64,000 nucleotides of DNA from an uncultured Eubacterium sp. (GTDB lineage: Bacteria > Bacillota > Clostridia > Peptostreptococcales > Anaerovoracaceae), in the NCBI GenBank assembly GCA_937966095.1, contig CALCKF010000101.1, positions 4,190-68,189 of the forward strand, read 5' to 3'. Under the pieces are notes generated by a model, which did not search any database, had not been told where the DNA came from, and saw nothing but the letters and a program-made list of their open reading frames with translations. Position 1 is the first letter of the stretch. Each line of letters opens with the position of its first letter. Shown piece by piece: positions 6,050-36,593 of the stretch. The position numbers were made by a program, and so were the translations under genes.

Positions 6050-6301
6050 TTATTCTGTAAAATTAATTACTGTAGCATTTCTAACGCCAAAATCCGACAG
6101 CAGTTTGTTTCCTTTAAGTAATGCGATAGGATTTTCCGCTTTTAAATAGCAGTTTTTTACATCTGAAACGTCTATTCCCAATTTATATGCAGAATTGAGC
6201 GCAATAACAAGATCGTTGGCCGAAATGTCGAGAGGCACTTCCAGATCTGCTTCGAAATTTCTTTTTTCTATCTTAAAAATAACTATTGCTTTATTTTCCA
6301 T
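6050..6301 (-). CDS. esaB: EsaB/YukD-family ubiquitin-like (beta-grasp) T7SS protein
   Basis: 83 aa with the pattern FEADLEVPLDISANDLVIALNSAY typical of YukD/EsaB, located directly upstream of essC. Confidence 0.7.
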   Translation of the reverse strand: MENKAIVIFKIEKRNFEADLEVPLDISANDLVIALNSAYKLGIDVSDVKNCYLKAENPIALLKGNKLLSDFGVRNATVINFTE

Positions 6302-7357: not shown

Positions 7358-8281
7358 TTAAAACTCCTCTCGTATTTCTGCTTTAAAATCGCTGTTAGCT
7401 AATCGTATAATATCTCCGGAATGGATTTCTCTGGGTGTCTCAGGCACAAGCCTCACACCATTGACAAATGTTCCGTTAGAGCTGCCCATATCTATGACAA
7501 AATACTTCATATCCTTATATATGAAATCACAATGATGTCTGCTGATAGCACTGTTGAACGTTATCTGCCCATCAGTATCAGGTCTTTTTCCGACGGTGAA
7601 TTTTTCCTTATCCACAACAAATGTCAAATCGGACGGATCTCCCTCGTAATTCAAGACAAGGACAGGTTGTCCGGCATTGTAATTAGAATCCGCATCTATA
7701 TTATCTGCTATTGTTGATTTACTTCTTCTTACTTCAGCAGAAATCTTCTCGTAAATCTGTCGCAATGAATATTGATTCTCTGAAAAGTATCTGCGTATAT
7801 CCAAGGTTTTGCCGGGTATTGCCTGCTCAATTATATCCAGCTGAGCTGCGATATATTTTATAAATCTGCTTTCATATTCAATATTATCTTGTTTTTTAGT
7901 ATTGATCGGCAGATATATAAGGTGTATTTCATATGTCTTTACATTGACATATAGTCTGTTAAATGAAATATCCAAATTGTTACATTTCAAAAATCCGATT
8001 TCTTCTATATCCATAATAGCTTTGATGAGGTTTGCTATTATAACGCACAGCTCTTCCGGACTGATCGTCTCGATCAGTCCGGATAGAGGCCTATAGCCGG
8101 AAACAAGATATACAAATTGTATTTTCCCATTAAAAAGTACTTTTGAACATTTTATGAGATGCTTCCTGCTGCGTCCGTTCAAAACTTTATATTCAGTCAA
8201 AGCAAACATATTATTATCCTTCAGCAAATATGCAGGATTAGCTTCAACCATTTTTTTGATTATCTTTTCTGCCTCTGCCAA
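7358..8281 (-). CDS. FHA-domain protein (approximately 190-aa N-terminal domain of unknown function plus canonical C-terminal FHA)
   Basis: The C-terminus VGKRPDTDGQITFNSAISRHHCDFIY...SSNGTFVNG keeps the pThr-binding Arg, Ser-x-x-His and Asn-Gly residues. The N-terminal domain is paralogous to that of ORF 15731..16753. Confidence 0.8.
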   Translation of the reverse strand: MAEAEKIIKKMVEANPAYLLKDNNMFALTEYKVLNGRSRKHLIKCSKVLFNGKIQFVYLVSGYRPLSGLIETISPEELCVIIANLIKAIMDIEEIGFLKCNNLDISFNRLYVNVKTYEIHLIYLPINTKKQDNIEYESRFIKYIAAQLDIIEQAIPGKTLDIRRYFSENQYSLRQIYEKISAEVRRSKSTIADNIDADSNYNAGQPVLVLNYEGDPSDLTFVVDKEKFTVGKRPDTDGQITFNSAISRHHCDFIYKDMKYFVIDMGSSNGTFVNGVRLVPETPREIHSGDIIRLANSDFKAEIREEF

Positions 8282-8307: not shown

Positions 8308-11300
8308 TTACATATCTTCAGATATTGCTTCTTTGCCTTTTCTTCTTTTAACAAATGCAATGATACCACCTGTCACAGCAGCCAATGCGATGAGTGATCC
8401 GATGAACAGCCATGTATTGGCAAACCATCTGACAAATATATTTGTGGATACTGTTATCGTATCGTTGAATTCATATGCCGGTTTAAATTCTTCTGACGAT
8501 GTATCCATAACATTCCCGGCCTTATCCTCCGCTACAAGCCTAACGTCCTGTTTGAGGCCGCCATGCACGATGAAATCATCGCTGCAATTACTCAAGTCAT
8601 CAAATTTATCGATGTTTTTTACCTTCTTGCCATCTACATATACTGTTACCTTATCCAGTCCTATTGCATCAAACACGTCGAACGTTACCTTTTGTTCATC
8701 AGCATTAACAATAGATTCTTCAAGTCCCTTTATGCTTGTAAATTCAGGAGCAACAGAATCGACGCGGAACATCGCATCCAGCTCCTCATAGTTGGATGTC
8801 TCCGGCTTATTCCCGACCTCATCTTCAGAGGCGACCGTTATGCTGTAAACTCCATCCTTAGCAAAATTTGAGGCAGCTATATCGTATTCATATTGATACC
8901 ATCCACTGCTTCCTATAGGCGCGCTGCTGTTGATCACCGGTGTAACGGAGTATTCAGGATTTTTCAAAGGTGTCCCGTCTTTTGTGATCTCCAGTTCAAG
9001 CGACCCCTCTACCAATCGATCCGGATTATACTCGGTTATTACAATATTCCGTGTAACTTGTTTAACATATTGATCCTGCAATGAAGACAGATATTCATTA
9101 TAATCATATACCGAACCGAATCTGTTCACTGTAAACGTAATACTCTTTTCTGAACGGTTGCCTGCTTTATCGACCATTGATACCGTTAATTTATATATGC
9201 CGTCGTTTTCCTGTATTTCCTCAAAGGTATTGCATGTAATAGTGCCTCCATGTCCATCTCTGGCCAATCCTCCGATATATTTGCTGGTCACATTGACATT
9301 CTGTTCATCTTTCCTCGTTCTGAGCAACACTATATCGTGACTGTCATAATTTACATCATCAAGATCGATCACAGGAATAACAGTGCCTTTGTATGAATTC
9401 CCGTCTTCAACCCCTGTTATAAATGGCTCGTTAATCTCAGTATCAATTGTAAACTGAGCGCCGGCAACGGTTCCGCTCACATAGCTCACGCCGTTATTTT
9501 TATTCCCGGCTTTGTCTTCCACTTCGATATTGAAGGTATAATCTCCGTCTGCTCTGTATGCTACAGTTGCTGTATGCGTATCTCCGCTGCTCCTTGCCCA
9601 ATTGATGTTCGGCTGACTTATATTGGCGCCGTCTAATGTCGCTCTTATATCAAAAGTAACTCTGTTGACATCAAAATTATGTTCCTGCACTGTAACAGTA
9701 GCAGTTCTCACTCTATCGAAGTACTTACCATTGGAAGCACTGTTATTATCATACCTGACAGATACTCTCGGATTTGTTTTATCAATGGTGAATACTGTTG
9801 TGGCTTTATTATCATCAGCATACTTTACATTATCATTTTCGTTTTCCGCTCTATCATTGACTTTTACGTCAAATGTATAATCTCCATCTTCTTTGAAGGT
9901 AACAGTAGTTTCATAACAATCTTCATCATTACCCTCGCCGCCTTTTATACCAGTTGCCTTCCATTTCAGAGCACCGAAATCATAAGCCTTCTTATCCTTT
10001 GTCACTGAAAGCGTAGTGTTTTCTGCATCATCAGGATCAAAATTTCGATCATATACTGTAATCGTTGCAGTTCTGTTTTTATTAAAGTATCCATTATTGT
10101 CTTCATCACCGCTGGCAGGATCATAGTCTACTTCTACAACAGGCTTCTCATTATCGATACCAAACGCATAATAATCATAGCTGATGTTACCGGAGTTATC
10201 GGTAAGTTCTACAAGAATAACCATATCGTTAGAACCTCCGGATACCTCAAAGTCCTTAAAAACAAGCTTACTTATCAGATTTCTGTCTTTTGTAGCTTCT
10301 GTTTTCACGTTATCGTCACTGGAAGAAATGTCTCCCTGTTTATTTACTGTAAGAGTATAGTCAAAAGTTCCCGGTACAGTGCTCTTTTCAGCTTCTGTTT
10401 CAAGGACTGCACACCGTATTTGAGCTATACCTGAATATTCGTCCTTGACACATATATCAAATTTTATCGTCCCGTTCTTTGATGCATACAAACTGACATC
10501 ATCTCCAGCACCTCCAAAATCTTCATATCCATTTTCAGACAGCCCGCCATTATTGACGTCGCGCTTTATCATGCTGTTCGGATACACGTATCCTGCAAAT
10601 TTCTTTGTCTGAGTAAAATCTGTTTCAGGCGCTGAAAACTGTATAGCTGACGTTTCTAAATGCTTTTCTTCATTTTCCCATATTATCCCTTGCGGATGCT
10701 TTACTTCTGTTTCTCCACGCGTATTGCCCAGTTCATCGATGGCATATGCCTCTATCTGACCTTTAAAGCCTTTGTCGATTTTGACAGTAATTTTATTATC
10801 CTTTACCTCTATATCCTGCCACCCTTCATCGCTGGTACCGTCTTTGTCGACAAGTCTATACACTATCCTTCCGCCCGCAACACCCGGCAAAGAAACCTCC
10901 TCCGTTGACTGTATATCATCGGATGTTATAGTCACTTCAACGGCTTCCTTAAAGAAGTATCCATATTTCGTTTCTTTCAATGGAGCTGATTCTTCTGTCA
11001 TAATTTCTGCTTTATCCATGCCTTCAGTTTCATATGAAAAGCTAACGGTAGGGGCATATTTATCTGTTGCGAACTTCCAGTCGTTATTACCTTCACTGTC
11101 TCGATTATTTCTGTTGACATCTATCCAATCAGTCAGATTTCCTTCATCGTCCTGAAATACCACATAATATTCTCCATTGATATTTGTCTTAGTCTCTTCT
11201 GTTGCAAGGGTTTCCGAGTTCCATGTTATACTGTCATCCTGTGAAGCCTCAATTACTGACTTTTCAGCCATTTCATCAGTACGCTTCAATAACTTGACAT

Positions 11301-12642
11301 TGTGATCTGTTGTCGAAATCTCAAAAGTGCCGTTGCTGTACCACTTACCATTCCTTTTAACATTTTCCGTACCATTTGATGAAAGTATTATATCTACATC
11401 GTCATAGACGACCTCAACAGTATATGTTGCTTCCTTGCCGTCATACGGGGAAACCGGTTTTGCCGTTACTGTTATTTTTCCGGCGCTTTCATATGTAACT
11501 ATTCCGGTATCCTTGTCGATAGCGGCACCTGTTTTTCCTTCAGTCTCAGCACTTAATGCATATTCCACATTAACACCGTCAGTTGCAGATGTTGCCGGAT
11601 ATTGAAATGTATTATTTTTATTGACTGTGATCCTCTCAGGGATACCACTAAACGCAAGATCATTTACTTCAATTGCAGCGATTACCAGTTTATACTCTGC
11701 CGTCGCCGCATAATTCCCGCCTGACATAAACGCTTCTATCGTCACCTCTCCAGGTGATGTATATGTCAATATCTTATTCGCCGGATCAACTTCAGCCCCG
11801 GCAGTATTTGCACTGTTATCTTTGACTTTGTAGCTTATATTGGTAACATTCAGGTTTTTGTCATTTACAGTTACTTCTTGAAGTGTTATCTGTTGGCTTG
11901 TTATGTTATATTCCTTTTTTTGGGTCGTTTCTGCGAATGACAACCCGTTATCAATTTTCTGCTGCGCAATGCTTGCTTTTACACTGTCTGCGTACGTTTC
12001 ATATCCATCTTTCGTGGCTTTGAAATATATGTTATAATCACCGGCGTTTGTCCCCTGTGGTACATCATCGCTGAAAGTGCCATCTTCATTCAGAGAATAT
12101 TTAATGCTCCATCCGGATTCCTGAGAATCGTTAAGCAGATCCTGTGCTCCACCGGTGTATTCCAGATCGCTTTTCACGCAGCCGTTGATGTGAGCTTTTA
12201 TTTCATTTTTATCTGCTTCGTCAAGTACTGCTTCTTTTCCCAATGAAATGGCGATCCATCCCACCTGCTGATTGGCCCAGCTTTGACTGACAGATATAAC
12301 GTCCTGCTCGTATTTGACATTTCCACTTGCTGTGGCCTCATTGTTTTTATTACCGTTTACATATACATTGATCTGCGAAGTGTCTTCCACACCTTCTACC
12401 TTTATCCGATACGAATAATTCTCACTATCCTGAGCAGTGGCCTCGGTCACTCCGTGAATATAGAATTTCACCGACTCACCGGGTCCTGCGTTGACACCAG
12501 TTTCTGTTATTTCCAATTCCTGTGGGTTCTTTTCCGCCGCCTGTACAATTTCCATCGCGCTGAATGGTATCGTTGTAAATACCAGGGCCGCACAAATTAA
12601 CAAAGTGATAAATTTCGGGACTGCTCTGCCTTTCAAAACCAT
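8308..12642 (-). CDS. Giant Ig-like-repeat cell-surface protein (signal peptide and C-terminal TM anchor)
   Basis: The ORF is open to 12711 (1467 aa), but the ATG at 12642 has a GAGAGG RBS and begins MVLKGRAVPKFITLLICAALVFTTIPFS (signal peptide). It has many repeated beta-rich modules ending in D.AGN-type motifs (EDKAGNKN, VDKAGNRS, EDKAGNVM, DELGNT, DRAENEN). The C-terminus is WLFIGSLIALAAVTGGIIAFVKRRKGK, with no LPXTG. Confidence 0.7.
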   Translation of the reverse strand: MVLKGRAVPKFITLLICAALVFTTIPFSAMEIVQAAEKNPQELEITETGVNAGPGESVKFYIHGVTEATAQDSENYSYRIKVEGVEDTSQINVYVNGNKNNEATASGNVKYEQDVISVSQSWANQQVGWIAISLGKEAVLDEADKNEIKAHINGCVKSDLEYTGGAQDLLNDSQESGWSIKYSLNEDGTFSDDVPQGTNAGDYNIYFKATKDGYETYADSVKASIAQQKIDNGLSFAETTQKKEYNITSQQITLQEVTVNDKNLNVTNISYKVKDNSANTAGAEVDPANKILTYTSPGEVTIEAFMSGGNYAATAEYKLVIAAIEVNDLAFSGIPERITVNKNNTFQYPATSATDGVNVEYALSAETEGKTGAAIDKDTGIVTYESAGKITVTAKPVSPYDGKEATYTVEVVYDDVDIILSSNGTENVKRNGKWYSNGTFEISTTDHNVKLLKRTDEMAEKSVIEASQDDSITWNSETLATEETKTNINGEYYVVFQDDEGNLTDWIDVNRNNRDSEGNNDWKFATDKYAPTVSFSYETEGMDKAEIMTEESAPLKETKYGYFFKEAVEVTITSDDIQSTEEVSLPGVAGGRIVYRLVDKDGTSDEGWQDIEVKDNKITVKIDKGFKGQIEAYAIDELGNTRGETEVKHPQGIIWENEEKHLETSAIQFSAPETDFTQTKKFAGYVYPNSMIKRDVNNGGLSENGYEDFGGAGDDVSLYASKNGTIKFDICVKDEYSGIAQIRCAVLETEAEKSTVPGTFDYTLTVNKQGDISSSDDNVKTEATKDRNLISKLVFKDFEVSGGSNDMVILVELTDNSGNISYDYYAFGIDNEKPVVEVDYDPASGDEDNNGYFNKNRTATITVYDRNFDPDDAENTTLSVTKDKKAYDFGALKWKATGIKGGEGNDEDCYETTVTFKEDGDYTFDVKVNDRAENENDNVKYADDNKATTVFTIDKTNPRVSVRYDNNSASNGKYFDRVRTATVTVQEHNFDVNRVTFDIRATLDGANISQPNINWARSSGDTHTATVAYRADGDYTFNIEVEDKAGNKNNGVSYVSGTVAGAQFTIDTEINEPFITGVEDGNSYKGTVIPVIDLDDVNYDSHDIVLLRTRKDEQNVNVTSKYIGGLARDGHGGTITCNTFEEIQENDGIYKLTVSMVDKAGNRSEKSITFTVNRFGSVYDYNEYLSSLQDQYVKQVTRNIVITEYNPDRLVEGSLELEITKDGTPLKNPEYSVTPVINSSAPIGSSGWYQYEYDIAASNFAKDGVYSITVASEDEVGNKPETSNYEELDAMFRVDSVAPEFTSIKGLEESIVNADEQKVTFDVFDAIGLDKVTVYVDGKKVKNIDKFDDLSNCSDDFIVHGGLKQDVRLVAEDKAGNVMDTSSEEFKPAYEFNDTITVSTNIFVRWFANTWLFIGSLIALAAVTGGIIAFVKRRKGKEAISEDM

Positions 12643-12697
12643 TGTTACCTCTCTTTCTGTTTCATTCCCTGTAAATGTAACTGCCAAACGATTTTCA

Positions 12698-13237
12698 TTA
12701 TATTTTTTCATCAGTATGTACTTTTATTATTTCCTGTATTATTTTCAGCTTACCTTTATCAGGTGATGATGCTGTCAGCTGCTCTGTTTCCATATCGCCG
12801 GTGCTGTTTGCCAGTTCCGCCGTCGTCTGCAAGCTCCCATCCTCTATGGTGCAGGCCTCTTTATCCGAAGTCTGAGCCATTGCTGCCTCCGCCAGCTCTT
12901 CTGTAGTAAGCACGTCTGTTGCGTTAAAGTCAATATGCTCGAGCTTTTCAGTAGGTGTTCCTGAGAGCTTTTCCTTAGGAGGGCTTTCTTTCACCTTTTC
13001 TATTTCTTCTGTGATTTTTCCTCTCCTGTAAGCGTCTACCGTAGCTCGATGTATTTTTATTCCGCTCTTCTCATTATCCCTTCTGAGCTGAGCTATCGAC
13101 CTCCGTGCTGTCTTACCGCTCAGATCGTTGATAATATCAAGTATTTTAAACTTAAACCATAAATAAGCTGTTGCTCCCATTCCCAGTATCGCCAGAGAAA
13201 AGCTAATAATGGCAATCAAGTTATATGCCTGGGTCAT
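12698..13237 (-). CDS. Small membrane protein (N-terminal TM, acidic low-complexity tail)
   Basis: 179 aa with TM helix LIAIISFSLAILGMGATAYLWF. Overlaps the kinase gene's 3' end by 17 nt, which suggests translational coupling. I do not recognise the family. Confidence 0.45.
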   Translation of the reverse strand: MTQAYNLIAIISFSLAILGMGATAYLWFKFKILDIINDLSGKTARRSIAQLRRDNEKSGIKIHRATVDAYRRGKITEEIEKVKESPPKEKLSGTPTEKLEHIDFNATDVLTTEELAEAAMAQTSDKEACTIEDGSLQTTAELANSTGDMETEQLTASSPDKGKLKIIQEIIKVHTDEKI

Positions 13238-14948
13238 ACGCTTCTCTCCTTTCTTCTGTATTAAGATATATACGTTCTACATTTTCGATATAGTCACTGC
13301 ATGAGCTTATAACTTCTTCCTGTATCTCTATTGATGCTTGCTGCGTAACGAATATATCCTGAGCGCCCTTTTTTATTGTATTGAGAGTTTCCTGCACTTC
13401 ACTTTGCAGAATCCCTGTAGTAGCAAACCCTTTTCTGTGGTTATTGATAAGATTTGCCAGTTCTCTGTACATCACCAGTTTAATGTAATTGGAATCATCA
13501 GACTCGTAGCCTTCCACATTTTCTATGCAGGTATTGATGGCATCGAGCAAATTCTCATAAGCTTCACGATCCGGCTCCCTTACGCTTGTGGCATTGATGA
13601 CATACTGCGAGTAAAAATCGCCTATCATATCGTAGCTCCGTGCTACATTATAATATTTATAGCCTTTATCGCCTGTCTCTGTAATCGACTCAAAATACGG
13701 CGCAGCTTTCAATATTCTTGTTCTGAAAGAGTCATCACCTCCGGAATACAGGTACAGGTAGGTACTCCCTGCCTTATACGCCAGCTGCTTATAGTCATCT
13801 TCAGTTTTATCGAATTTATCTTGATTCTGGTTATATTTTGTCGTAAATTGATTACTCTCCCGGTCTCCGAAACTTCCATTCTGTTCAAATGCGTCCAGTA
13901 GCTTTATGTATGCTCTGACATCCCCTCCATATATATCGATAGCCTCAAGATACGTATTTACCTTTGTCTCATATGGAGTGGATTCCGATATATTTATTTT
14001 TTCCTCATAATTTCTGCTGTTTTCAAAATGCATCAGCAACAGGGATAAGCCTCCGATCAGAGCAAGGCATATTGTCGCTGCGGCTGCTATAATGAAATTT
14101 TTTAATTTTTTCTTTTGACTGTTCCTGTATTCTTCTCCGATATGCTTATAATTGTTCAGATCATAGAGCAATTCATTACAATTGGAATATCTGTCATCCG
14201 GATCTATAGCTGTACATTTGTCAATTATGTACTCTATCCCTTCATGGATTTCAGGGTTCCACTGTCTGACAGGAAAGTATTCATAGTCATTTCCTCTTGG
14301 ATCGACTCCTGTAAGCAAGTGGTGCATAGTCATGCCCAGTGCATATATATCTGATCTCGCGTCAGTCTGCCTGGAGCCATATTGCTCAGGCGGCGCATAT
14401 CCCTTTGTTCCCAGAATAGTTGTATCCGCAAGATTTTTTTCTTTATATTCCCTTGCAATTCCGAAATCAATTATCTTTATATTGCCTTCCGGCTTGAGCA
14501 TCACATTGGCCGGTTTCATATCCCTGTAAATTATCGGGGGACTTTGGGAATGCAGGTATGATAACGCATCACATATCTGCATCGCCCAATCTATTACAGA
14601 CTCCTGTGGCTGTGTTCCATATTCCTTTAATATTTTATCCAGAGATTCACCTTCCACATAATCCATCACGATATACAAGGTCTCTCCGTTATCTATGATA
14701 TCTACGATTCTCGGCAATGCAGGATGATCAAGCCGCTTCATCAAATTAGTTTCAGCTATCAGGCTATTTATTACGACTTCATCATTTCGGCCATTCCCTG
14801 TTTTTTTAACTTCTTTAACCGCCCACTGCTTATTCAGTCTTCTGTCCATAGCCAGGTAAACTATCGACATACCGCCTCTGCCAATTTCTTTTAAGACTTC
14901 ATATTTATCATCTATAATTGTGCCTATTTGTGTGGCCATTATTTTCAC
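13221..14948 (-). CDS. Hanks-type Ser/Thr protein kinase, membrane-anchored, with a non-PASTA extracellular domain
   Basis: G-loop GRGGMSIVY, Lys in WAVKEV, catalytic loop YRDMKPANVML, DFGIA and GTKGYAPPEQ are all intact. TM helix FIIAAAATICLALIGGLSLLLM is followed by an approximately 270-aa helical ectodomain. Confidence 0.9.
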   Translation of the reverse strand: MKIMATQIGTIIDDKYEVLKEIGRGGMSIVYLAMDRRLNKQWAVKEVKKTGNGRNDEVVINSLIAETNLMKRLDHPALPRIVDIIDNGETLYIVMDYVEGESLDKILKEYGTQPQESVIDWAMQICDALSYLHSQSPPIIYRDMKPANVMLKPEGNIKIIDFGIAREYKEKNLADTTILGTKGYAPPEQYGSRQTDARSDIYALGMTMHHLLTGVDPRGNDYEYFPVRQWNPEIHEGIEYIIDKCTAIDPDDRYSNCNELLYDLNNYKHIGEEYRNSQKKKLKNFIIAAAATICLALIGGLSLLLMHFENSRNYEEKINISESTPYETKVNTYLEAIDIYGGDVRAYIKLLDAFEQNGSFGDRESNQFTTKYNQNQDKFDKTEDDYKQLAYKAGSTYLYLYSGGDDSFRTRILKAAPYFESITETGDKGYKYYNVARSYDMIGDFYSQYVINATSVREPDREAYENLLDAINTCIENVEGYESDDSNYIKLVMYRELANLINNHRKGFATTGILQSEVQETLNTIKKGAQDIFVTQQASIEIQEEVISSCSDYIENVERIYLNTEERREAYDPGI

Positions 14949-14949
14949 C

Positions 14950-15717
14950 CTACATACACTTCAATACCACAGCAGTGATATTGTCCCGTTCATTTCTTGA
15001 TTTTATGATTTCGATCAATTCATTTTCTCTTCTGTATATATCGGCAACATCGCCTAAAGTCCCCGGAGCCAGCGCATCATACATTTCTTTTTCATCGAGC
15101 AAATGTCTGAATCCATCTGAACATAAAAGAAATACAGTGTTCTTGGCTATCGTGCCTAATTCAATCTGGGGCTCAACGTTTTTCGATGCGCCGACACACT
15201 GTAAAAGGACTCCTCTCCGTGGATCATTTTCTGCTTCCTCTCTAGTCAGCCTCCCCTGCTCAATCTCCCTTTGCATCAAAGAATGGTCTTTTGTAATCTG
15301 TCTTACGGTGTCCGTGATCTCATATATTCTGCTATCTCCTACATGTGCGAACATATATTTATCATCTATTATCAATATTCCGCTCACTGTAGTTCCAATG
15401 TTCTCATTTTTCATCCTGCCGAATTCTTTTATCAGATCGTTCTGCTCACGCAGAAGATGATTCCATTGACCTCCGAACTCCTGCAATGTAATGGAATCGT
15501 AATCTGCAGACAGATCCTCATCAAACCACTTTATTAACCGTCTGATAACCGTGGCGCTTGCAAGCTCTCCTCGGGCCAACCCGCCCATTCCGTCACAAAC
15601 CACAGCCATTGCTATGACTCTTCCATCGGGTGTTTCGGCTATTTTAAGACATGCACTGTCTTCATTTGTTGTTTTGACTATTCCTCTATCTGTTGCTACT
15701 GCTCCTACACACTTCAT
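14950..15717 (-). CDS. PP2C-family Ser/Thr phosphatase
   Basis: Motifs VCDGMGG, VGDSRIY, LLCSDGF and DNITAVV are present. Starts 1 nt after... strictly, its stop lies 1 nt upstream of the kinase start, so the two look translationally coupled. Confidence 0.9.
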   Translation of the reverse strand: MKCVGAVATDRGIVKTTNEDSACLKIAETPDGRVIAMAVVCDGMGGLARGELASATVIRRLIKWFDEDLSADYDSITLQEFGGQWNHLLREQNDLIKEFGRMKNENIGTTVSGILIIDDKYMFAHVGDSRIYEITDTVRQITKDHSLMQREIEQGRLTREEAENDPRRGVLLQCVGASKNVEPQIELGTIAKNTVFLLCSDGFRHLLDEKEMYDALAPGTLGDVADIYRRENELIEIIKSRNERDNITAVVLKCM

Positions 15718-15730
15718 GGTTGTCTTTCTT

Positions 15731-16753
15731 TCATTTACCTTTCTCTACATGGAATGTAAACCTTTCATTTGCCAGCATTATTGAATCCTCATCGTAGATT
15801 TTCATCCTGTTGCCTGCTTTTATTTCCTTCCCATTGACAAATGTTCCGTTTGTGGAATTATTATCTTTAATGTAAAATGTTTCTCCGTCTGTTATGATAT
15901 CTGCATGTATCCTGCTCACTGCGTTATTGTTATTTACGAAACAGTCTACATAACTCCTTTCCTTGCCTATCCTGAACACGGGTTTATCTATTTCGATCCG
16001 TTCCTGTGTACTCAATCTGATGAGGTGGGCTCTCACATTATTTTCATTAAAGGGGGATTCATTATATGGATTATCTTTATCCAACAGAGAGGTCCCTGAT
16101 AGTATCGAGGTTTTCCCCTCTTCCTCCAGCATCGTAGTTTTCCAGTTTTCGTTTTCAATATTATAATTATTTTTCTGGTTCCCATGACTTTCATTGCTCA
16201 ATTCCGGTTCTATTCTCAACAGGCATTTTTCAAATTCATCTGAAGAATATGACCGTTGAGAATTTATAAAATCAGATATTACATTTATAAAATATCTGTT
16301 TTCCTCTCTAAATAGATTTACCACTGAAAGCATATATGCAAAAAAAGCAAAAATATCATTATGCTTATAATTTCCATATATTGGCTGGTATATGAAAGCA
16401 AGTCTCTTAGTTGCTTCATTAAAAAAAACAAAATTATGATCCAGCGTCAATTTATTGATATCAAAATTTTCTGCGCTTAACTTTTTTGTTACATATACTG
16501 TCTGCATAAGCAAATCAAGGAATCGTTTTCTACTCATCTGCTGACCTATATATTGAGCCAACGTAACATGTCCTGAAACAATATATAAAAGGTTTCTTTT
16601 ATTTGTTAAAGTTGGGATAATTAACCCATCGGCAGAACATCCTGTCAATATGTGAAGCTCATTTTTATCTATAATCTCCCCTCTCATCAATTTGACCTTC
16701 ACTACTTTTTTATATTCATTGTTAATAATTTTGAATTTAGCCATACAATACAT
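15731..16753 (-). CDS. FHA-domain protein, paralogue of 7358..8281
   Basis: The C-terminus IGKERSYVDCFVNNNNAVSRIHADII...STNGTFVNG is a canonical FHA. The N-terminal domain shares the layout and motifs of the other FHA protein (LTLDHNFVFFNEATKRLAFIYQP versus NNLDISFNRLYVNVKTYEIHLIYLP). The start could be the ATG at 16744. Confidence 0.8.
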   Translation of the reverse strand: MYCMAKFKIINNEYKKVVKVKLMRGEIIDKNELHILTGCSADGLIIPTLTNKRNLLYIVSGHVTLAQYIGQQMSRKRFLDLLMQTVYVTKKLSAENFDINKLTLDHNFVFFNEATKRLAFIYQPIYGNYKHNDIFAFFAYMLSVVNLFREENRYFINVISDFINSQRSYSSDEFEKCLLRIEPELSNESHGNQKNNYNIENENWKTTMLEEEGKTSILSGTSLLDKDNPYNESPFNENNVRAHLIRLSTQERIEIDKPVFRIGKERSYVDCFVNNNNAVSRIHADIITDGETFYIKDNNSTNGTFVNGKEIKAGNRMKIYDEDSIMLANERFTFHVEKGK

Positions 16754-16888
16754 CCATAAATTGATTTACAACTTACATATTACATATTTTTTACTTTTTT
16801 TTATTTTACTCTATCATTTTTACACTATGACACATATTGTATGAATCAGATCGTTTTTTGTAATTTTTAGTCAAACTATGTTCTAACT

Positions 16889-16933
16889 AAAAAACTCCAG
16901 ACTGTATTTCCTTCTTCAGTCCGGAGTTTTTTG
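16889..16933 (-). terminator. Rho-independent terminator after the 425-aa kinase-like gene
   Basis: Hairpin ACTCCAGAC / GTCCGGAGT (one mismatch) flanked by an A-run and a T-run, so it reads as stem plus T-tract on both strands. Confidence 0.5.
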
Positions 16934-16966
16934 TTACTATGTTCAAATATTCCTTTTCAGTTTAAC

Positions 16967-18244
16967 CTATATCTCTATTTCCAATAAGGCGTTCTTGTTT
17001 TCTCTATTCCACTTTATATTTCCTTTATTTATTTCAACTATATCTTTGATAAGTATATACATATCGCTTCTCTTTATGAGCAGGGCTTTAAGTTTTGATA
17101 TTCTGAATTCAATGGATATTTTCGTATGTATCGGTGAGCCAGCTGCTGACGTCTCTTTTTCACAAGTAATATTCTCGATTTTTGCTTTTCCTAATACAGT
17201 TCTGTATCTTGTTGAAATATCGGATATGTACCTGAAGATCTCATATTTTTCCCGGTCGGATAATTCTCCGCTCCTTATGCTTCTCCATGCCAGCTGCTTT
17301 TCTACGTTATTGTTTATGCGCTCACATATGTCAACCAGATGAGACCTGTATTCTTCATTTTTTACACTTCTGATTTCATTTTGAGAAGAAGTAAGTACAA
17401 TGATATGATTAGCAATATCGTGCTTCAGTTCCCTGATATTTCTGCTGATATCAGCAACAGACCTGTAATACTCCCTCTGCAGTTCTGTTTCCATAATGAT
17501 TATTCTCTCGTATTGCTTTCTGCTCTTTGACATCATTAAAATTGCAGCACCGATACCTATCATAAGTATCACAAGAAATATAGCATACGATATCATAGAC
17601 TCCATATTTATTCTGTCATATTTTTCCTGTATCTCAGCTATAAACTCCGCATTCAGAACTGAAACGGTTATTTTAACTATATACGTAATAAAAGATACTC
17701 CTAATATGACTATGCATATTTTATCCGGTATCTTTTTTATGAGCATGTCTACTTTTTTATTTACCGCATAAGTTATAACCAGTACGAGTAACAGCTGGAT
17801 CCAGTTCTCCAGTATTATAGGATATTGATCAAGAGATTCAATATTATATATCGATCCCTGTATCTGTTCCGGTTCAAACAGCAGATGCATCAGATTCATT
17901 ATAATAAGTCCATATGTCAGGGTCGTCAATACATCATAATACAGGAATATCTTAATAAAATTTCTAGGAAGAAATCCTTCTGCATATATACCTATCACAG
18001 TAATAGTAACGAATGTATATATCATATGACAGATATTGTAAATAAGTATATCTGATTTGGCCTGAGATACTATTGCTATTGTTCCCAGATGATATTCGAG
18101 AGTCAGGAACAATACCGTATATATAAAAACTATTACAGCACATTGCCTGCGTTTTTCATTTACTTTATAAAGTTTCATTATCAGGAATTCCTGAAATACA
18201 GTATAAACTGTGATATAAGTAAAAAAACAAAGAACTGTTGCCAT
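16967..18244 (-). CDS. AgrC/HPK10-like polytopic sensor with H-box but a degenerate ATPase domain
   Basis: 425 aa with about 6-7 TM helices, then RELKHDIANHIIVL (H-box). I found no N-box (DNAxE) or GxGxG G-box in the C-terminal 130 aa. Confidence 0.6.
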   Translation of the reverse strand: MATVLCFFTYITVYTVFQEFLIMKLYKVNEKRRQCAVIVFIYTVLFLTLEYHLGTIAIVSQAKSDILIYNICHMIYTFVTITVIGIYAEGFLPRNFIKIFLYYDVLTTLTYGLIIMNLMHLLFEPEQIQGSIYNIESLDQYPIILENWIQLLLVLVITYAVNKKVDMLIKKIPDKICIVILGVSFITYIVKITVSVLNAEFIAEIQEKYDRINMESMISYAIFLVILMIGIGAAILMMSKSRKQYERIIIMETELQREYYRSVADISRNIRELKHDIANHIIVLTSSQNEIRSVKNEEYRSHLVDICERINNNVEKQLAWRSIRSGELSDREKYEIFRYISDISTRYRTVLGKAKIENITCEKETSAAGSPIHTKISIEFRISKLKALLIKRSDMYILIKDIVEINKGNIKWNRENKNALLEIEI

Positions 18245-18361
18245 TTTCTGCTCCTTCTACAATAAATATTCTGTATGATACAAATTTCTGTTGTCTTTTT
18301 TAGTCTATATATGTAATAATAAAATTAAATAATATCTTTTATATATTAAGGAGAATTACCT

Positions 18362-19102
18362 GTGAGAATCGCAATCTGTGATGACAATATCGACGTATCA
18401 AAAAATCTTTACAAAATGCTTCTGGAAATCGAAATTTTACATATCAGCAAAATAGATATTTTTATAAATGCGGATGCATTGATTTTCAAATCCGGTGAGA
18501 CACCTTATGATATCGTTTTCATGGATATAAGACTAAATGATCGTTCAGGTATCGATGTGTCAAAAAACATACTCGATATATCTCCTTTGACTGATATTAT
18601 ATTCATTTCAGGATATGATGATTATTACCTTGATGTTTATGAAGTCGATCATATCTACTTTCTGCGTAAACCTATAGATTTTGAAAAGCTGTCTGATGCT
18701 ATCAGAATATCTCAAACCAAACGCACCTGCCACAATGAAAAAATATTTACACTAAATGATAAGCATGGGGTTATGCGTATACCTATGGAAAACATAATGT
18801 TTTTTGAAAAAAACCTTCGTATCATTGAAATTCACATGAACACATCATATGAATTTCAAAAATCAAAATACGATGCTGATTTTGACGAATATCAATACAG
18901 CTTTTACGGTAAATTCTCTGACATCATACCTTATCTAAGCACCGCATTCCATCAATGTCATAACAGTTTTATCGTAAATTTTAATTATGTTTCTGAAATA
19001 ACCGGAAAATCTTTTATTTTAAAAAACAAAAGAGTAATACCCATAAGCAAAAAATTTCTACAAGAGATAAAGGCATCATTTTTTAAATATATAGAATTAT
19101 GA
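18362..19102 (+). CDS. LytTR-family response regulator
   Basis: GTG start 7 nt after AAGGAGAA. Receiver domain has MRIAICDDN and FMDIRL (Asp acceptor). The C-terminus is LytTR-like (FHQCHNSFIVNFNYVSEI). Confidence 0.85.
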   Translation: MRIAICDDNIDVSKNLYKMLLEIEILHISKIDIFINADALIFKSGETPYDIVFMDIRLNDRSGIDVSKNILDISPLTDIIFISGYDDYYLDVYEVDHIYFLRKPIDFEKLSDAIRISQTKRTCHNEKIFTLNDKHGVMRIPMENIMFFEKNLRIIEIHMNTSYEFQKSKYDADFDEYQYSFYGKFSDIIPYLSTAFHQCHNSFIVNFNYVSEITGKSFILKNKRVIPISKKFLQEIKASFFKYIEL

Positions 19103-19110
19103 TTTCCAAG

Positions 19111-19830
19111 TTATCCGGCTGACCTTTTCATGGTAATATATATGGATACTTCAAAAGAATCTCTTTTATCAGATATATCTACTTCCCCGTTATATCTGTA
19201 TGCGATCATACGGATTATGTTTATTCCATGCCCATGATTTTCCTTGTCAGATTTTGTTGTATTGAAATCCTTATCAGTAATTACCAGATCATTTTTTGAA
19301 TTTGTCACTTTTATTATCCATACATTTTTTTTACATGCACTTATGACATTTATGTACCTCTTCGTTTTCACTTTATCTGTTAATATCGCGGCTTCTATTG
19401 CATTATCCAGTACATTACCCATTATTGACACAGAATCGATTTCTTTCACCTGGTTTTCTGAAGGTATAAATGATATGTTATCAATAAATTCTATATCGTT
19501 TTCAATACAAACATGTTTTTTCTCAAAGATAAGCACACCTAACGCTGTATCTGCACCGTTTATCGATACCAGCAAACTGTCGCATTTTTCTATACAGCTT
19601 TCTTCTCTTCCTATTTGCGCAGACTCTATACTTTGCCTGACTTCTGCTGTCAATTCAAGTGCTTTTTCGCATATTTCCACAGTATTGTCCATATATTTGT
19701 TCTGTTTCTGCCACTCATCGATCATATGTTGTGTATTCGATTTGTTTTTATCGGTAGCTTTCTTGAGAACAACCAGTAATGCGATACAGAATAATATCAA
19801 TAAAATTACAATAAATAAATATAATTCCAA
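19111..19830 (-). CDS. GHKL ATPase-domain protein (AgrC-type catalytic domain, single TM, no obvious phospho-His)
   Basis: 239 aa. One N-terminal TM, N-box MGNVLDNAIEA and G-box ENHGHGINIIRMIAYRYNG. The helical region ahead of it has no KHDxxN-type H-box. Confidence 0.6.
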   Translation of the reverse strand: MELYLFIVILLILFCIALLVVLKKATDKNKSNTQHMIDEWQKQNKYMDNTVEICEKALELTAEVRQSIESAQIGREESCIEKCDSLLVSINGADTALGVLIFEKKHVCIENDIEFIDNISFIPSENQVKEIDSVSIMGNVLDNAIEAAILTDKVKTKRYINVISACKKNVWIIKVTNSKNDLVITDKDFNTTKSDKENHGHGINIIRMIAYRYNGEVDISDKRDSFEVSIYITMKRSAG

Positions 19831-19980: not shown

Positions 19981-21474
19981 TTAATTATCCCCTGATGTAA
20001 CTGAATCTATTTTCTCCTGTGCTGCTTTCACCGAAGCCTCATCCGGTATCACCACATAAAGCTGTCTGCTTCCCATGCTGTACGTGGATGAATATGTACC
20101 CTTTCCGTTTATCGATATAGTTTCTATAGTCCATCCGCCAAGATCCTCAAGCTGCATCTTCACCAGAGAAGCAATGTCACTTTCACTCATATTGGTCTGC
20201 ATCTCATCGCCCACAGTATTGAGTATCTTGGTATATCCTGTAAGTATAGCCGTGCTCCCTGTAATCTTCTGTAGTATGGCTTCAAGCACTCTCTGCTGGT
20301 TCTTTATTCGCTCCTGATCTCCTTCTTCAAAGGATTTTCTCTCTCTTGCAAAAGCCAGAGCAGAAGCTCCGTCCAGATGGTTCTCACCTTCGACGAAACT
20401 GTATCCCCTGTTCTGACGCCCATGAGTCTCGAAAGCATATTCCGAGGTCACATCTATTCCTCCTATGGCGTCTACTATGTCCTCTACAGACGTGAAGTTG
20501 ACCCTGATATAATAATTGATGTCGATACCGAGCCAGTCCTCCACAGTCTCCACAGTCTCTCCTATGCCGTATATTCCCGAATGGGTCAGCTTGTCCATTG
20601 CTCCGTATGAATGAAGCATCACATAAGTATCTCTAGGTATCGATGTGAGCAGGATCTTTTTATCTACGGGATCCACCGTCATTATCATATTAACGTCGCT
20701 CCTGGACACCTTGCTGATTCCTCCGAATGTATCTATCCCGCTTATATACACATTGAACGGATCACTGGTGATGCCGATACGCTTGGCAACGTCTTTAGTA
20801 TCTATCTCAACAGTAACGGTATAAACTATTCTGGTTCTGTCTTCAAAGTCTTCAAGATCCTCGCATATAATCTCATAATTATTACTGCTGAGGAAGATAA
20901 GTTCATCATGCTCTTTATCTTTATCATCAATGAGAACAGTCTTGAGCTGTATATAGCCTCCAGCCTCCTTATAGCTGACATCCGCTTCTTTTTTCAGCTT
21001 GTCCTGAGCCTTGTCATAGGCAGAAGAAGAACTGTCATGAATAAATATGGTTTTTCCTTTGATATCATCCAAATCCCTGTAGCTGCCGTCCTTAAGAGCC
21101 ACAACATAATAATCCTCATACTGCCTGTCCTCATCGCTCATGCGGCTGAATGCGGAATATGTAGTGAAGAGATAGTAACAGCCTATGGCAAGGACGATGA
21201 TCATTACAATGGACAGAATAACACCGGCTTTACGCTGACGTGTCACTTCCTTGCGGCAGGAAAGAAGTTTGAAAATAAATATAAGTAATGCCACAAATAC
21301 GATTATGATTATTATATTGAATATTACCGGCAATACACCTACCAATATCAAAAGCGATAAAAATGTCACTTCCAATATTAGAAACAACAGGCCTGCTATC
21401 AGAAGTCCCGGAGAAGACGGGATGAAACAGACTTTACTTTTTGATTCTTTTCCATTATTCTTCATAACATCCAC
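19981..21474 (-). CDS. LytR-CpsA-Psr (LCP) family glycopolymer-peptidoglycan ligase
   Basis: N-terminal TM helices plus the LCP core (SRSDVNMIMTVDPVDKKILLTSIPRDTYV). Confidence 0.85.
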   Translation of the reverse strand: MDVMKNNGKESKSKVCFIPSSPGLLIAGLLFLILEVTFLSLLILVGVLPVIFNIIIIIVFVALLIFIFKLLSCRKEVTRQRKAGVILSIVMIIVLAIGCYYLFTTYSAFSRMSDEDRQYEDYYVVALKDGSYRDLDDIKGKTIFIHDSSSSAYDKAQDKLKKEADVSYKEAGGYIQLKTVLIDDKDKEHDELIFLSSNNYEIICEDLEDFEDRTRIVYTVTVEIDTKDVAKRIGITSDPFNVYISGIDTFGGISKVSRSDVNMIMTVDPVDKKILLTSIPRDTYVMLHSYGAMDKLTHSGIYGIGETVETVEDWLGIDINYYIRVNFTSVEDIVDAIGGIDVTSEYAFETHGRQNRGYSFVEGENHLDGASALAFARERKSFEEGDQERIKNQQRVLEAILQKITGSTAILTGYTKILNTVGDEMQTNMSESDIASLVKMQLEDLGGWTIETISINGKGTYSSTYSMGSRQLYVVIPDEASVKAAQEKIDSVTSGDN

Positions 21475-21479
21475 CTTTG

Positions 21480-22574
21480 CTATATTGCCTTTAGTATATC
21501 CACTATTCTGCGGCTCGCTTGTCCGTCACCGTACGGATTGCTGGCTTTGCTCATTTTATTATATTCATTTTCATCAATCAACAGGCGTTTAAAGTTTTCA
21601 TATATGGTTTCTTCTTCAGTTCCCACAAGTTTTAATGTACCGGCTTCAATACCTTCAGGCCTTTCCGTGGTATCCCGCATTACCAAAACCGGTTTGCCCA
21701 GCGAAGGAGCTTCCTCCTGAATTCCTCCGCTGTCTGTCAGTATTAAATACGACCTTGCCATAAAATTATGAAAATCTATGACTTCCATCGGCTCAGTCAG
21801 CTTTATCCGCTCATTATTTCCGAAAACATCTTTCGCCGTCCTCTGCACCACCGGGTTAAGATGTACAGGATATATTACCTTTACGTCCGGAGTCTCATTC
21901 ACGATGCGCCTGATAGCACGAAACATGCTGTAAAGATGTTCACCCAGATTCTCACGGCGGTGAGCTGTAAGCATGATGAGTCTGCTTCCTTCCGCCCAGT
22001 CCAGAAGATCATGTCTGTAATCGGAAATAACTGTAGTTTTCAATGCATCTATGCCGGTGTTTCCGGTAACAAATATGTTCTTATCATTCTTTCCCTCTCT
22101 CAACAGATTCTGTCTTGCTTTCTCCGTAGGTGCAAAATGGTATTTGGCTATAATTCCTGCCGCCTGTCTGTTGAATTCTTCCGGAAACGGGGAATAGATA
22201 TCATATGTACGAAGTCCGGCTTCCACATGACCTACCGGAATCTGCTGATAAAAACATGCCAAAGCAGAGGCGAAAGTCGTCGTAGTATCACCATGAACCA
22301 ATACTGTATCAGGCTTTGATAACATCAATATTTCTTTCATGTCAAGCAAAACCTTTGACGTTACATCATACAGATCCTGCTTTTTCTTCATTATGGACAG
22401 ATCATAATCAGGCTGTACCCCAAAAGCGTCAAGAACCATATCGAGCATTTCACGATGCTGGCCTGTCACACAAATTTCTGTAACTATATTTTTTTCTTTC
22501 TTTAATTCTTTTACAAGCGGACACATTTTTATCGCCTCAGGACGGGTGCCGAATATAAGCATTATTTTTTTCAT
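21480..22574 (-). CDS. wecB: UDP-N-acetylglucosamine 2-epimerase (non-hydrolysing)
   Basis: MKKIMLIFGTRPEAIKMCPLV..., HVEAGLRT and TDSGGIQEEAPSLGKPVLVMR are hallmark epimerase_2 motifs. Confidence 0.9.
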   Translation of the reverse strand: MKKIMLIFGTRPEAIKMCPLVKELKKEKNIVTEICVTGQHREMLDMVLDAFGVQPDYDLSIMKKKQDLYDVTSKVLLDMKEILMLSKPDTVLVHGDTTTTFASALACFYQQIPVGHVEAGLRTYDIYSPFPEEFNRQAAGIIAKYHFAPTEKARQNLLREGKNDKNIFVTGNTGIDALKTTVISDYRHDLLDWAEGSRLIMLTAHRRENLGEHLYSMFRAIRRIVNETPDVKVIYPVHLNPVVQRTAKDVFGNNERIKLTEPMEVIDFHNFMARSYLILTDSGGIQEEAPSLGKPVLVMRDTTERPEGIEAGTLKLVGTEEETIYENFKRLLIDENEYNKMSKASNPYGDGQASRRIVDILKAI

Positions 22575-22586
22575 AATACTAAACTA

Positions 22587-24167: not shown

Positions 24168-24173
24168 AATACA

Positions 24174-24953: not shown

Positions 24954-24974
24954 AATTACAATAGTCGTTTAATA

Positions 24975-25388: not shown

Positions 25389-25394
25389 ATCAAA

Positions 25395-26066: not shown

Positions 26067-26121
26067 GAACGATCTCCTTATCCAATATTTTCCATAACAA
26101 TTATTATCTACTTAAAAAATA

Positions 26122-33717: not shown

Positions 33718-33735
33718 GATATGCCTCCGGATATT

Positions 33736-34923: not shown

Positions 34924-34962
34924 TTTCTCCTTCTTTTCTCCTTCTTCTTCGTATATTTTGCT

Positions 34963-36583: not shown

Positions 36584-36593
36584 TTTAATCTCC

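Follow-up and report, generated by a model that had tools for sequence, protein, structure and literature searches.

Gram-positive bacteria, among them abundant Clostridia of the gut, use type VII secretion systems (T7SS) to deliver LXG toxins to one another and, to our knowledge, the control of T7SS firing is poorly understood beyond a few model species. The locus discussed here belongs to an uncultured Eubacterium sp. and was analysed within a stretch of 64,000 nucleotides, henceforth the window (GenBank assembly GCA_937966095.1, contig CALCKF010000101.1, positions 4,190 to 68,189 of the forward strand). On the minus strand, positions 13221-16753 of the window encode, in the order of transcription, a protein with DUF6382 and FHA domains, a phosphatase of the PP2C family and a Hanks-type kinase that spans the membrane once. 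By sequence comparison, these proteins are orthologues of TseJ, TseF and TseD of T7SSe and, together with TseH and TseI encoded by the next two genes, make up a conserved five-gene cassette. T7SSe is one of the types T7SSc to T7SSj defined by Garrett, Higginson and Palmer (microLife 2024; PMC11217815), whose nomenclature is adopted throughout: TsxD is the kinase, TsxF the PPM phosphatase, TsxJ the DUF6382-FHA protein, TsxH a small transmembrane (TM) protein, TsxI an immunoglobulin (Ig)-like giant protein and TsfV a TadZ-like ATPase. The operon consists of the following genes, in the order of transcription:

15731-16753, minus strand: J1, the TseJ orthologue, a DUF6382+FHA protein of 340 amino acids (Pfam DUF6382, E = 7e-8; FHA, E = 3e-14)
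14950-15717, minus strand: TseF orthologue, a cytoplasmic PPM/PP2C Ser/Thr phosphatase of 255 amino acids (PP2C_2, E = 1e-9)
13221-14948, minus strand: TseD orthologue, a Hanks-type Ser/Thr kinase of 575 amino acids (Pkinase, E = 7e-52)
12698-13237, minus strand: TseH-like small membrane protein of 179 amino acids, with one predicted TM segment and no Pfam match
8308-12711, minus strand: TseI-like giant Ig-like surface protein of 1467 amino acids (Pfam Big_13, Big_3_4)
7358-8281, minus strand: J2, a second DUF6382+FHA protein, paralogue of TseJ (FHA, E = 4e-19; DUF6382, E = 3e-9)
6311-7357, minus strand: TadZ/CpaE-like ATPase of the MinD/ParA family, TsfV-like (AAA_31, E = 1.6e-8)
6050-6301, minus strand: YukD/EsaB-like ubiquitin-fold protein, TsxB (YukD, E = 4.6e-5, 24.5 bits, slightly below the cut-off)
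1520-6040, minus strand: EssC/TsxC ATPase of the FtsK family, which has two TM helices and, at the N-terminus, a pair of degenerate FHA domains (TIGR03928, 1156 bits)
1082-1513, minus strand: YwqH-like protein of the effector module (Pfam)
799-1080, minus strand: DUF5344 protein of the effector module (Pfam)
1-771, minus strand: LXG toxin, the first 257 amino acids, from Pfam and the translation; the gene runs off the window

The operon is tightly packed, with gaps or overlaps of at most 26 nucleotides between consecutive genes from 16753 down to 799, and its downstream part comprises the genes for YukD, EssC and the LXG toxin. An initial annotation of this DNA, made from the sequence alone, had placed the kinase, phosphatase and FHA genes within a T7SS operon, and this placement is borne out. 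Its label for the system, T7SSb, has to be dropped because none of the cluster genes matches the EssA, EssB/YukC or EsaA families in a Pfam-type family search. Scans for promoters and terminators across the operon yielded counts not above those in shuffled sequences. The complete LXG toxin, of 467 amino acids, is encoded on the parent metagenome contig (ENA ERZ925171, 69.8 kb; locus L004 of the comparison below), where the cluster continues beyond the window start with the remainder of the LXG gene and the genes for DUF4176, WXG100, another small FHA protein, the third, and a number of zinc-ribbon proteins. Positions 20056-24239 of this contig encode the stand-alone 144-amino acid FHA protein (IGK...SREH...SLNHT), followed by five zinc-ribbon/DZR proteins, possibly TseK-like, and also a second YwqH-like protein and a 576-amino acid protein without a family match. 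Outside the cluster, the window is chromosomal DNA, with rpoD and dnaG among its genes as well as a gene cluster for cell-wall polysaccharide.

The kinase, TseD, has the sequence hallmarks of an active enzyme, namely, the G-loop GRGGMSIV (residues 23-30), Lys45 (in AVK), Glu66, YRDMKPAN (141-148), DFG (161-163) and APPE (185-188), in agreement with the initial annotation, which had listed the G-loop, the VAIK-type Lys, YRD, DFG and APE as retained. Lys45, D143, N148 and D161 are invariant in 35/35 kinase orthologues. The protein is divided as follows:

14184-14903, minus strand: kinase domain, residues 16-255 (Pkinase)
14037-14093, minus strand: the single predicted TM helix, residues 286-304
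13224-14036, minus strand: helical-repeat ectodomain in the AlphaFold2 (AF2) model, residues 305-575

An extracellular, non-PASTA domain of about 270 amino acids had been proposed, and indeed the 271 residues that follow the single TM helix produce no Pfam match and, in particular, no PASTA match. Compared with the model of the Stk1 PASTA kinase (NF033483), TseD scores 232 bits, with a cut-off of 450, and profile positions 1-272 alone are aligned. The AF2 model of the ectodomain (predicted local distance difference test, pLDDT, 89) is an all-alpha helical repeat of 12 helices, with the best Foldseek matches to TPR or other helical repeats, all of them weak (E of at least 2.6e-3). Metagenomes of gut and rumen commonly contain full-length orthologues of TseD, with 55-91% identity, and, across the orthologues, the rate of divergence is about twofold higher in the ectodomain than in the kinase domain (30-58% vs 49-78% identity). 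The divergence of the two domains is uncorrelated (Spearman -0.07; window vs L005-L037); in L031, L032 and L037, the kinase domain shows 76-78% identity, and the ectodomain just 32-33%.

A profile search with the ectodomain in 1.84 billion representatives retrieved 458 relatives that fall into two size classes, kinase fusions of about 560 amino acids and kinase-less proteins of about 290 amino acids in which only a short N-terminus and a TM helix precede the ectodomain. In loci L038-L041, kinase-less paralogues are found amid genes of conjugative elements (TraG/VirD4, VirB4-like, Rep3, NUDIX). One of these (L041, 10001-10876) lies 1.5 kb upstream of the gene for a 1927-amino acid Ig-like protein (12392-18175) that is homologous to the C-terminal half of the window TseI (342 bits).

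The phosphatase, TseF, likewise appears to be active. The metal-binding Asp motifs, which the initial annotation had described as kept, are all present, with the five Asp residues (NED D20, DGMGG D42, GDSR D128, SDG D201 and DNIT D245) invariant in 27/27 orthologues. The score against the Stp1/IreP-type NCBIfam model (E = 3.5e-50, 171 bits) is under the equivalog cut-off of 230, and no TM helix is predicted.

The putative readers of phosphothreonine are the two DUF6382+FHA proteins, neither of which contains a hydrophobic (TM) segment. The public gene call for J1 begins three codons later (337 amino acids). In the AF2 model of J1 (pLDDT 81), the N-terminal domain (residues 1-186; pLDDT of about 90) is connected by a linker (187-235; about 30) to the FHA domain (237-335), which superposes on the FHA domains of EmbR and GarA at 1.4-2.1 Å; the top Foldseek matches of the model are the FHA domains of EmbR, GarA, OdhI and Rv0020c, all of which bind phosphopeptides. 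According to the initial annotation, both FHA proteins keep the phosphothreonine-contacting Arg, the Ser-x-x-His motif and the Asn; the second protein meant there is J2, which lies outside the 13221-16753 segment to which that annotation was attached. The Ser-Arg-x-His and Asn-Gly motifs are indeed retained in J1 and J2 (SRIH/SRHH and STNGT/SSNGT, respectively), but the Arg is not: Gly-Lys takes the place of the canonical Gly-Arg of the beta3-beta4 loop, the Arg of which contacts the phosphate, in J1, J2 and the 144-amino acid FHA protein encoded downstream, as seen in the alignment of VGKRPD of J2 with GRHPE of OdhI and of IGKERS of J1 with IGRLH of EmbR. On sequence grounds, the replacement of Arg by Lys is a conservative change. 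The Lys is invariant in 65/65 homologues of J1, as are S277, R278, H280, S297, T298 and N299, and J2 has its own conserved signature, IGK / ISRxHC / GSSNGT. Moreover, the FHA region of J1 closely matches that of the reference TseJ in Fig. S4 of Garrett et al. (FRIGKERSY...ISRSHADI...NSTNKT), which also has Gly-Lys as well as two GTTVL motifs (PMC11217815).

The fold of DUF6382 is a separate issue. This domain was suspected to be an EssB-like pseudokinase because the Foldseek search of TsfJ by Garrett et al. listed kinase-domain proteins (PMC11217815). The comparisons made here provide no match of this kind: the DUF6382 alignment profile retrieves nothing at E <= 10 among the PDB sequences, its hhalign comparison with the TseD kinase-domain alignment gives a probability of 0.4%, DUF6382 alone is matched in Pfam at E <= 10, and the top 50 Foldseek matches of the full-length J1 model are all FHA domains.

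The linker of J1, which is predicted to be disordered, contains tandem acidic G-T-x-L-L motifs:

16082-16138, minus strand: three T-x-[LI]-L motifs of J1 (KTTML, GKTSIL and GTSLL, amino acids 206-224), candidate phospho-acceptor or FHA-ligand sites

The motif occurs in one to seven copies in 19/20 full-length TseJ orthologues and is enriched about 11-fold, with 69 instances in 21 TseJ linkers compared with 6.2 +/- 2.4 in shuffled sequences (maximum 15). In the 65 homologues of J1, conservation of the linker positions T204, L207, T218, L221 and T227 amounts to 90% or more. By comparison, J2 linkers lack such repeats, with zero or one chance motif each. The cytoplasmic tails of TseH carry motifs of the G-T-E-[LV]-L type in 29/31 orthologues, and the activation loop of the kinase reads A-D-T-[TV]-[VIS]-L-G-T in 29/31 orthologues (ADTTILGT in the window). 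The motifs of TseJ and TseH resemble this loop, so that the putative substrates look like the autophosphorylation site of the kinase. Many FHA domains select a hydrophobic residue at the third position after the phosphothreonine and, in GarA and OdhI, the acceptor ETTSVF (Thr-Thr followed by hydrophobic residues) is tethered to the FHA domain. The G-T-x-L-L repeats of the TseJ linker and the TseH tail are, by their sequence, candidate phospho-acceptor and FHA-ligand sites. Several TseJ orthologues have much enlarged linkers (L016:6614-8287, L031:47-1408 and L022:4515-5690); L016, a protein of 557 amino acids, has long direct repeats, each with GEDTGLL, and the copy number of T-x-L-L varies from 1 to at least 7.

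TseH has an N-terminal TM segment (amino acids 7-25) and a conserved juxtamembrane motif, DLSG(K/R)TA(R/K)(R/K)SI; its cytoplasmic tail is disordered, acidic and rich in Thr. Among the TseH orthologues (window and L005-L037), the juxtamembrane region W-F-[KR]-F-x-I-x-x-I-I-G-D-L-S-G-R-T-A-[KR]-K-S-I-E-Q-M-R is strongly conserved and so is the C-terminal I-H-T-[DE]-E-V-I; neither motif has a Pfam match. TseI consists of a signal or anchor helix (TM 34-52), Ig-like repeats and a C-terminal TM anchor (1436-1454).

The cassette is far from being confined to this genome. A scan with the ectodomain profile, with one genome per species, yielded 33 loci from Lachnospiraceae, Oscillospiraceae, Acutalibacteraceae, Ruminococcus, Eubacterium and Alloiococcus, among which the gene order J-F-D-H-I recurs. 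Counting those loci with enough flanking sequence for each neighbour, a PP2C gene is directly upstream of the kinase in 25/29 and TseJ is encoded upstream in 20/27, whereas a TseH homologue is encoded directly downstream in 28 of the 31 and TseI, after the kinase and TseH, in 20 of the 21. The gene for EssC is contiguous with the cassette in the window and 10 other loci, in three positions that match three EssC lineages: directly after the cassette (L001, L005 and L015), after the genes for J2, the ATPase and YukD (window, L003, L013, L017, L031 and L032), and upstream of the cassette (L027 and L028). In L018, J2 and the ATPase are present and then the flank ends.

There are also loci with other surroundings. 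The gene after tseI in L020 codes for an unrelated peptidase. In a Eubacterium metagenome-assembled genome (L021:8319-20663), the genes for PP2C, kinase, TseH and TseI are directly followed by tadZ (TadZ-like_ARD, E = 2e-42), tadA (T2SSE) and two T2SSF genes (tadB-tadC); essC is absent within 10 kb, and TseJ was not detected upstream. Two divergent kinases, with 49-51% kinase-domain identity (L026:9104-14617 and L034:3607-8436), are accompanied by an Ig-like protein alone; these pairs are flanked by the housekeeping genes for GroEL, fructose-bisphosphate aldolase, PheRS and QueA, and no phosphatase, FHA or essC gene is found nearby.

The pairing with an Ig-like giant protein thus extends beyond the complete cassette. 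Given the kinase-less ectodomain next to a TseI homologue and the stand-alone kinase/Ig-protein pairs, the ectodomain and TseI form the most constant unit, which favours TseI as the probable partner of the TseD ectodomain. Mirror-tree comparisons do not discriminate, as the ectodomain correlates with the TseI C-terminus at a Spearman coefficient of 0.50, and the kinase domain with TseI at 0.43. The suggestion in the initial annotation that the kinase senses a cue at the surface is compatible with the constant pairing with a giant Ig-like protein and with the Esr pathway (PMC13622651).

The motor ATPase differs from that expected for T7SSe. The window EssC passes the TIGR03928 cut-off, and its scores against the references of Garrett et al. 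are 203 bits with TsfC, 162 with TsbC (S. aureus EssC), 119 with TsjC and 92 with TseC, the subtype being assigned by BLAST against the Fig. S2 sequences of PMC11217815, which were transcribed by optical character recognition and contain errors; the identity to the single TsfC reference of this origin is about 26%. True TseC loci (L027 and L028) score 563-676 bits with the TseC reference. The only named close relatives of the window EssC (from Pseudoflavonifractor, WP_204871899 and WP_168124732) are absent from Supplementary Data 5 of PMC11217815. The FHA region of the window EssC (SIGSS...YTMRDQ...YHNGK; FHA score 21 bits) has neither GR nor SxxH and keeps NG, which is the TsfC/TsbC pattern of Table S1, whereas GR and SxxH are kept by 98-99% of TseC (PMC11217815). 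The gene for the YukD-like protein has a conserved position before essC. The TadZ-like ATPase, with the two-domain TadZ-type protein of E. rectale (3FKQ; E = 1.6e-5) as the best solved relative, is always paired with J2 in the loci compared. These two proteins are present in 6/6 loci in which the EssC FHA region lacks GR and SxxH and absent in 5/5 loci in which it has GK/GR, SxxH and NG. This complementarity suggests that the reader role would have moved from EssC to J2.

The best-supported reading of these observations, and a reasonably probable one, is that the cassette is a reversible Thr-phosphorylation module that gates the adjacent T7SS. It builds on the gene identities, the intact catalytic residues, the SxxH and Asn motifs of the FHA domains, the conserved synteny, the enrichment of the T-x-L-L motif and the complementarity between J2 and a competent EssC FHA domain; from these, we infer who would phosphorylate whom, the contact between TseD and TseI, and a post-translational output. 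TseD would be held at the envelope via its helical ectodomain, probably touching TseI, and would autophosphorylate its activation loop, A-D-T-T-I-L-G-T. It would then phosphorylate the look-alike acidic G-T-x-L-L motifs of the TseJ linker and the TseH cytoplasmic tail. The resulting phosphothreonines would be read by the FHA domain of TseJ, acting in cis like that of GarA/OdhI or else in trans, and by the FHA domain of J2, which, with the TadZ-like ATPase, adjoins an EssC whose own FHA region has lost the phosphate-binding residues. Such reading would recruit the EssC motor or release it, thereby gating the export of the LXG toxin, and TseF would reset the system.

Several observations weigh against this scheme. 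The Gly-Lys in TseJ, J2 and the 144-amino acid FHA protein means that, judging by the sequence, binding of phosphothreonine is not assured, and the TseH tail of the window has weak versions of the motif (TDVL, TAEL and TEQL). The complementarity between J2 and the EssC FHA region rests on three EssC lineages and so on few independent events. Just 8/24 of the genome loci with a full flank have essC within 10 kb, for which the length of tseI (4-8 kb) is in part responsible, and the cassette is not strictly tied to essC, as shown by L020, L021, L026 and L034. The initial annotation had made its case depend on the kinase/phosphatase/FHA trio not occurring everywhere irrespective of essC, and the outcome is mixed: in some genomes, the cassette is located next to Tad pilus genes or among housekeeping genes, and essC is missing within 10 kb.

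This distribution is the starting point of the least improbable of the alternatives, still an unlikely one, in which the cassette is a general surface-sensing module, signalling from the giant surface protein via the kinase to an FHA output, with a transcriptional or other effect, similar to IreK in Enterococcus or Esr1 in Schaalia, and its adjacency to T7SS results from co-regulation or co-transfer. The cassette or its kinase/Ig core occurs with three EssC lineages, with Tad pilus genes or alone, T7SS transcription has been reported to depend on IreK (cited in PMC11217815), pT152 of the FHA protein drives a transcriptional response in the case of Esr1 (PMC13622651), and genes for a LytTR response regulator and a GHKL kinase are located just upstream of the operon. 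However, Pfam searches detect no recognisable DNA-binding domain in TseJ or J2, structural genes of the T7SS lie on either side of these translationally packed genes, the motifs are carried by TseH, a membrane protein of the cluster, and the presence of J2 and the ATPase exactly where the EssC FHA region is degenerate points at the motor itself.

Also unlikely, and slightly more so, is a mainly structural role of TseD as the counterpart of the EssB/YukC pseudokinase, whereby the cytoplasmic domain docks the apparatus, the ectodomain holds TseI, and phosphorylation is incidental or fine-tunes stability. The bitopic layout of TseD is shared with EssB/YukC and with TraF of pIP501 (PMC13037476), the cluster has no matches to EssB, EssA or EsaA, and the unusual conservation of the kinase domain (49-78% identity) is what a hub with multiple partners would be expected to show. 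The kinase-less TM+ectodomain proteins of about 290 amino acids in loci of conjugative type IV secretion systems (T4SS), one of them next to a TseI homologue (342 bits), further imply that the ectodomain works without a kinase. Nevertheless, the catalytic residues are invariant in 35/35 orthologues, whereas pseudokinases such as EssB have lost them (PMC11217815), a dedicated, active-looking PP2C is adjacent in 25/29 loci, and TseD is accompanied by FHA readers and conserved Thr motifs; no sequence similarity between TseD and EssB was found. A structural role of TseD and phosphorylation-dependent gating are not mutually exclusive.

The remaining two explanations can be rejected. That TseF and TseD are a housekeeping Stk1/Stp1 (PknB-type) pair for cell-wall or division signalling and a chance neighbour of T7SS is barely credible and effectively refuted by synteny: although the best NCBIfam matches are the models of the Stk1 PASTA kinase and the Stp1/IreP phosphatase, the scores are far under the equivalog cut-offs (232 vs 450 and 171 vs 230, respectively), the catalytic domain alone is matched and PASTA is missing, the ectodomain is of a distinct helical repeat family, and the orthologues defined by it are in the J-F-D-H-I order at most loci. 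An anti-phage defence system formed by the kinase, phosphatase and FHA genes is just as far-fetched, because the matches to the mad6 and PD-T4-6 defence-kinase models (E of about 1e-60), which, with a TIR-domain gene 6 kb away, speak for it, are confined to the generic kinase domain, TseJ, TseH and J2 have no PADLOC match, and the conserved neighbours are secretion-system genes.

The gating of T7SS by the cassette can be extended to a more speculative proposal, which we consider possible but doubtful. TseJ-F-D-H-I would be a portable 'contact-sensing phospho-gate', the core of which, the kinase ectodomain together with a giant Ig-like surface protein, is combined with at least three EssC lineages and Tad pili and, in the kinase-less form, occurs in conjugative T4SS; it would signal through a short linear motif that had escaped notice, the acidic G-T-x-L-L repeats of TseJ and TseH that mimic the kinase activation loop, read by Gly-Lys FHA domains and, in the lineage of the window, the reader role would have moved from EssC to J2 and the TadZ-like ATPase. 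If true, contact at the cell surface would be linked to secretion in commensal Clostridia, and one signalling cassette would be reused across three kinds of envelope machines. The new leads are certain threonines, in the T-x-L-L repeats of TseJ and TseH and at T176/T177 of the kinase loop, the invariant Lys in place of Arg in the FHA domains, the prediction that a separate FHA protein has taken over as reader from EssC, and a kinase paired with a giant surface protein that is shared by conjugative elements and Tad pili.

The neighbourhood upstream of the operon has features of its own. Directly upstream, a low-GC segment (16967-19830; 30-32%) contains three genes, for a 425-amino acid polytopic membrane protein (operon strand), a LytTR response regulator (plus strand) and a 239-amino acid GHKL-domain protein (operon strand), which may be a split AgrC/LytS-type sensor system and hence a candidate transcriptional regulator of the T7SS; a LytTR protein, TsiN, is listed among the components of T7SSi in PMC11217815. 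Farther upstream (22587-24167), between cell-wall genes (LytR_cpsA_psr and UDP-GlcNAc 2-epimerase) and the polysaccharide cluster, is the gene for a 526-amino acid protein with an N-terminal TIR domain (TIR_2, 1e-18; weak ThsB/SAVED-TIR PADLOC matches) and a C-terminal cupin. The surface-polysaccharide cluster itself (24174-38177) is low in GC (27-35%) and encodes two very large DUF3880 proteins, one of 1071 amino acids with a methyltransferase domain and one of 833 amino acids with GT2, as well as an ABC transporter ATPase, a UDP-glucose dehydrogenase and a WecG/TagA transferase.

Among the described systems, the closest are T7SSe and T7SSf, and by its gene content, the locus fits none of T7SSc to T7SSj, being composed of the T7SSe cassette (TseJ-F-D-H-I), J2, the TadZ-like ATPase, YukD and a TsfC-like EssC. 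T7SSe of Bacillota (TseA1/A2, B, C, D, F, H, I, J and K) shares with the window TseD, TseF, TseJ, TseH, TseI and the YukD-like TseB, in the described order, and a nearly identical signature of the TseJ FHA domain (IGKERSY/SRxHADI/NSTN; PMC11217815). T7SSe also has two WXG100 proteins, TseA1/A2, and TseK, a one-TM or zinc-ribbon protein; farther along the parent contig, outside the window, one WXG100 protein (97 amino acids) and five zinc-ribbon (TseK-like) proteins are encoded, and a second WXG100 protein was not identified. In contrast to T7SSe, the window EssC is not TseC (92 bits vs 563-676) and lacks GR and SxxH, and J2 and the TadZ-like ATPase are inserted before yukD-essC. T7SSf of Clostridia (TsfA, B, C, F, J and V) shares the TsfC-like EssC with its FHA pattern, the TadZ-like ATPase, the PPM phosphatase and the DUF6382-FHA protein, but is described without a kinase, TseH or TseI, all three of which are present in the window, and TsfJ has two TM helices compared with none in J1 and J2 (PMC11217815). 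With the reservation that the source was available in part, the e/f hybrid combination is not described in the text of PMC11217815.

The initial annotation knew of no operon-encoded equivalent of such a switch for T7SSb. This has been overtaken by the literature, given that kinase, PPM phosphatase and DUF6382-FHA components are present in T7SSc/d/e/f/j, and regulation by threonine phosphorylation was suggested from the genomes, together with the comparison to type VI secretion systems (T6SS), in PMC11217815. The idea of a phospho-switch is already published as a genomic prediction, and the locus itself is a variant combination. The T6SS pathway (PpkA-PppA-Fha1 in P. aeruginosa and PpkA-TssL-Fha in A. 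tumefaciens) has the same logic of a membrane Hanks kinase with an extracytoplasmic domain, an opposing PP2C and an FHA reader, and possibly a membrane-anchored substrate, TssL in T6SS and TseH in the window. However, the secretion machine is unrelated, the window ectodomain is a helical repeat, and its FHA domains have Gly-Lys; the two FHA proteins score 30.3 and 35.8 bits with the TagH/Fha1 model (TIGR03354; cut-off 120). The likeness is a functional analogy only, not membership.

An experimentally characterized system of similar design is the Esr threat-sensing pathway of Schaalia (Actinomycetales), where a kinase/phosphatase/FHA system, one copy of which is integrated in Esx operons, signals through a Thr that becomes phosphorylated in the FHA protein's disordered linker (bioRxiv 2026, PMC13622651). 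In common with the window are a cell-surface filament, a kinase/phosphatase pair, and an FHA output protein with a folded N-terminal domain, a disordered Thr linker and, C-terminally, the FHA domain. The phyla differ, the N-terminal domain of EsrG is a pseudophosphatase rather than DUF6382, and the MoxR, vWA, transglutaminase and beta-propeller proteins of Esr have no counterparts at the window locus. GarA and OdhI of Actinobacteria, the best solved-structure matches of both window FHA proteins, share the acceptor motif, the flexible linker and the FHA domain, but regulate tricarboxylic acid cycle enzymes, lack DUF6382 and have one acceptor site N-terminal to the FHA domain, compared with one to seven repeats in TseJ. 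Finally, the pseudokinases EssB/YukC of T7SSb and TraF of the pIP501 T4SS have the topology of TseD, with a cytoplasmic kinase fold, one TM segment and a helical extracytoplasmic domain, and TsxD kinases have been noted to be TraF-like (PMC13037476). The kinase-less paralogues of the TseD ectodomain in conjugative loci provide a further link to T4SS. Whereas pseudokinases such as EssB have lost the catalytic residues, according to PMC11217815, TseD keeps every one of them.

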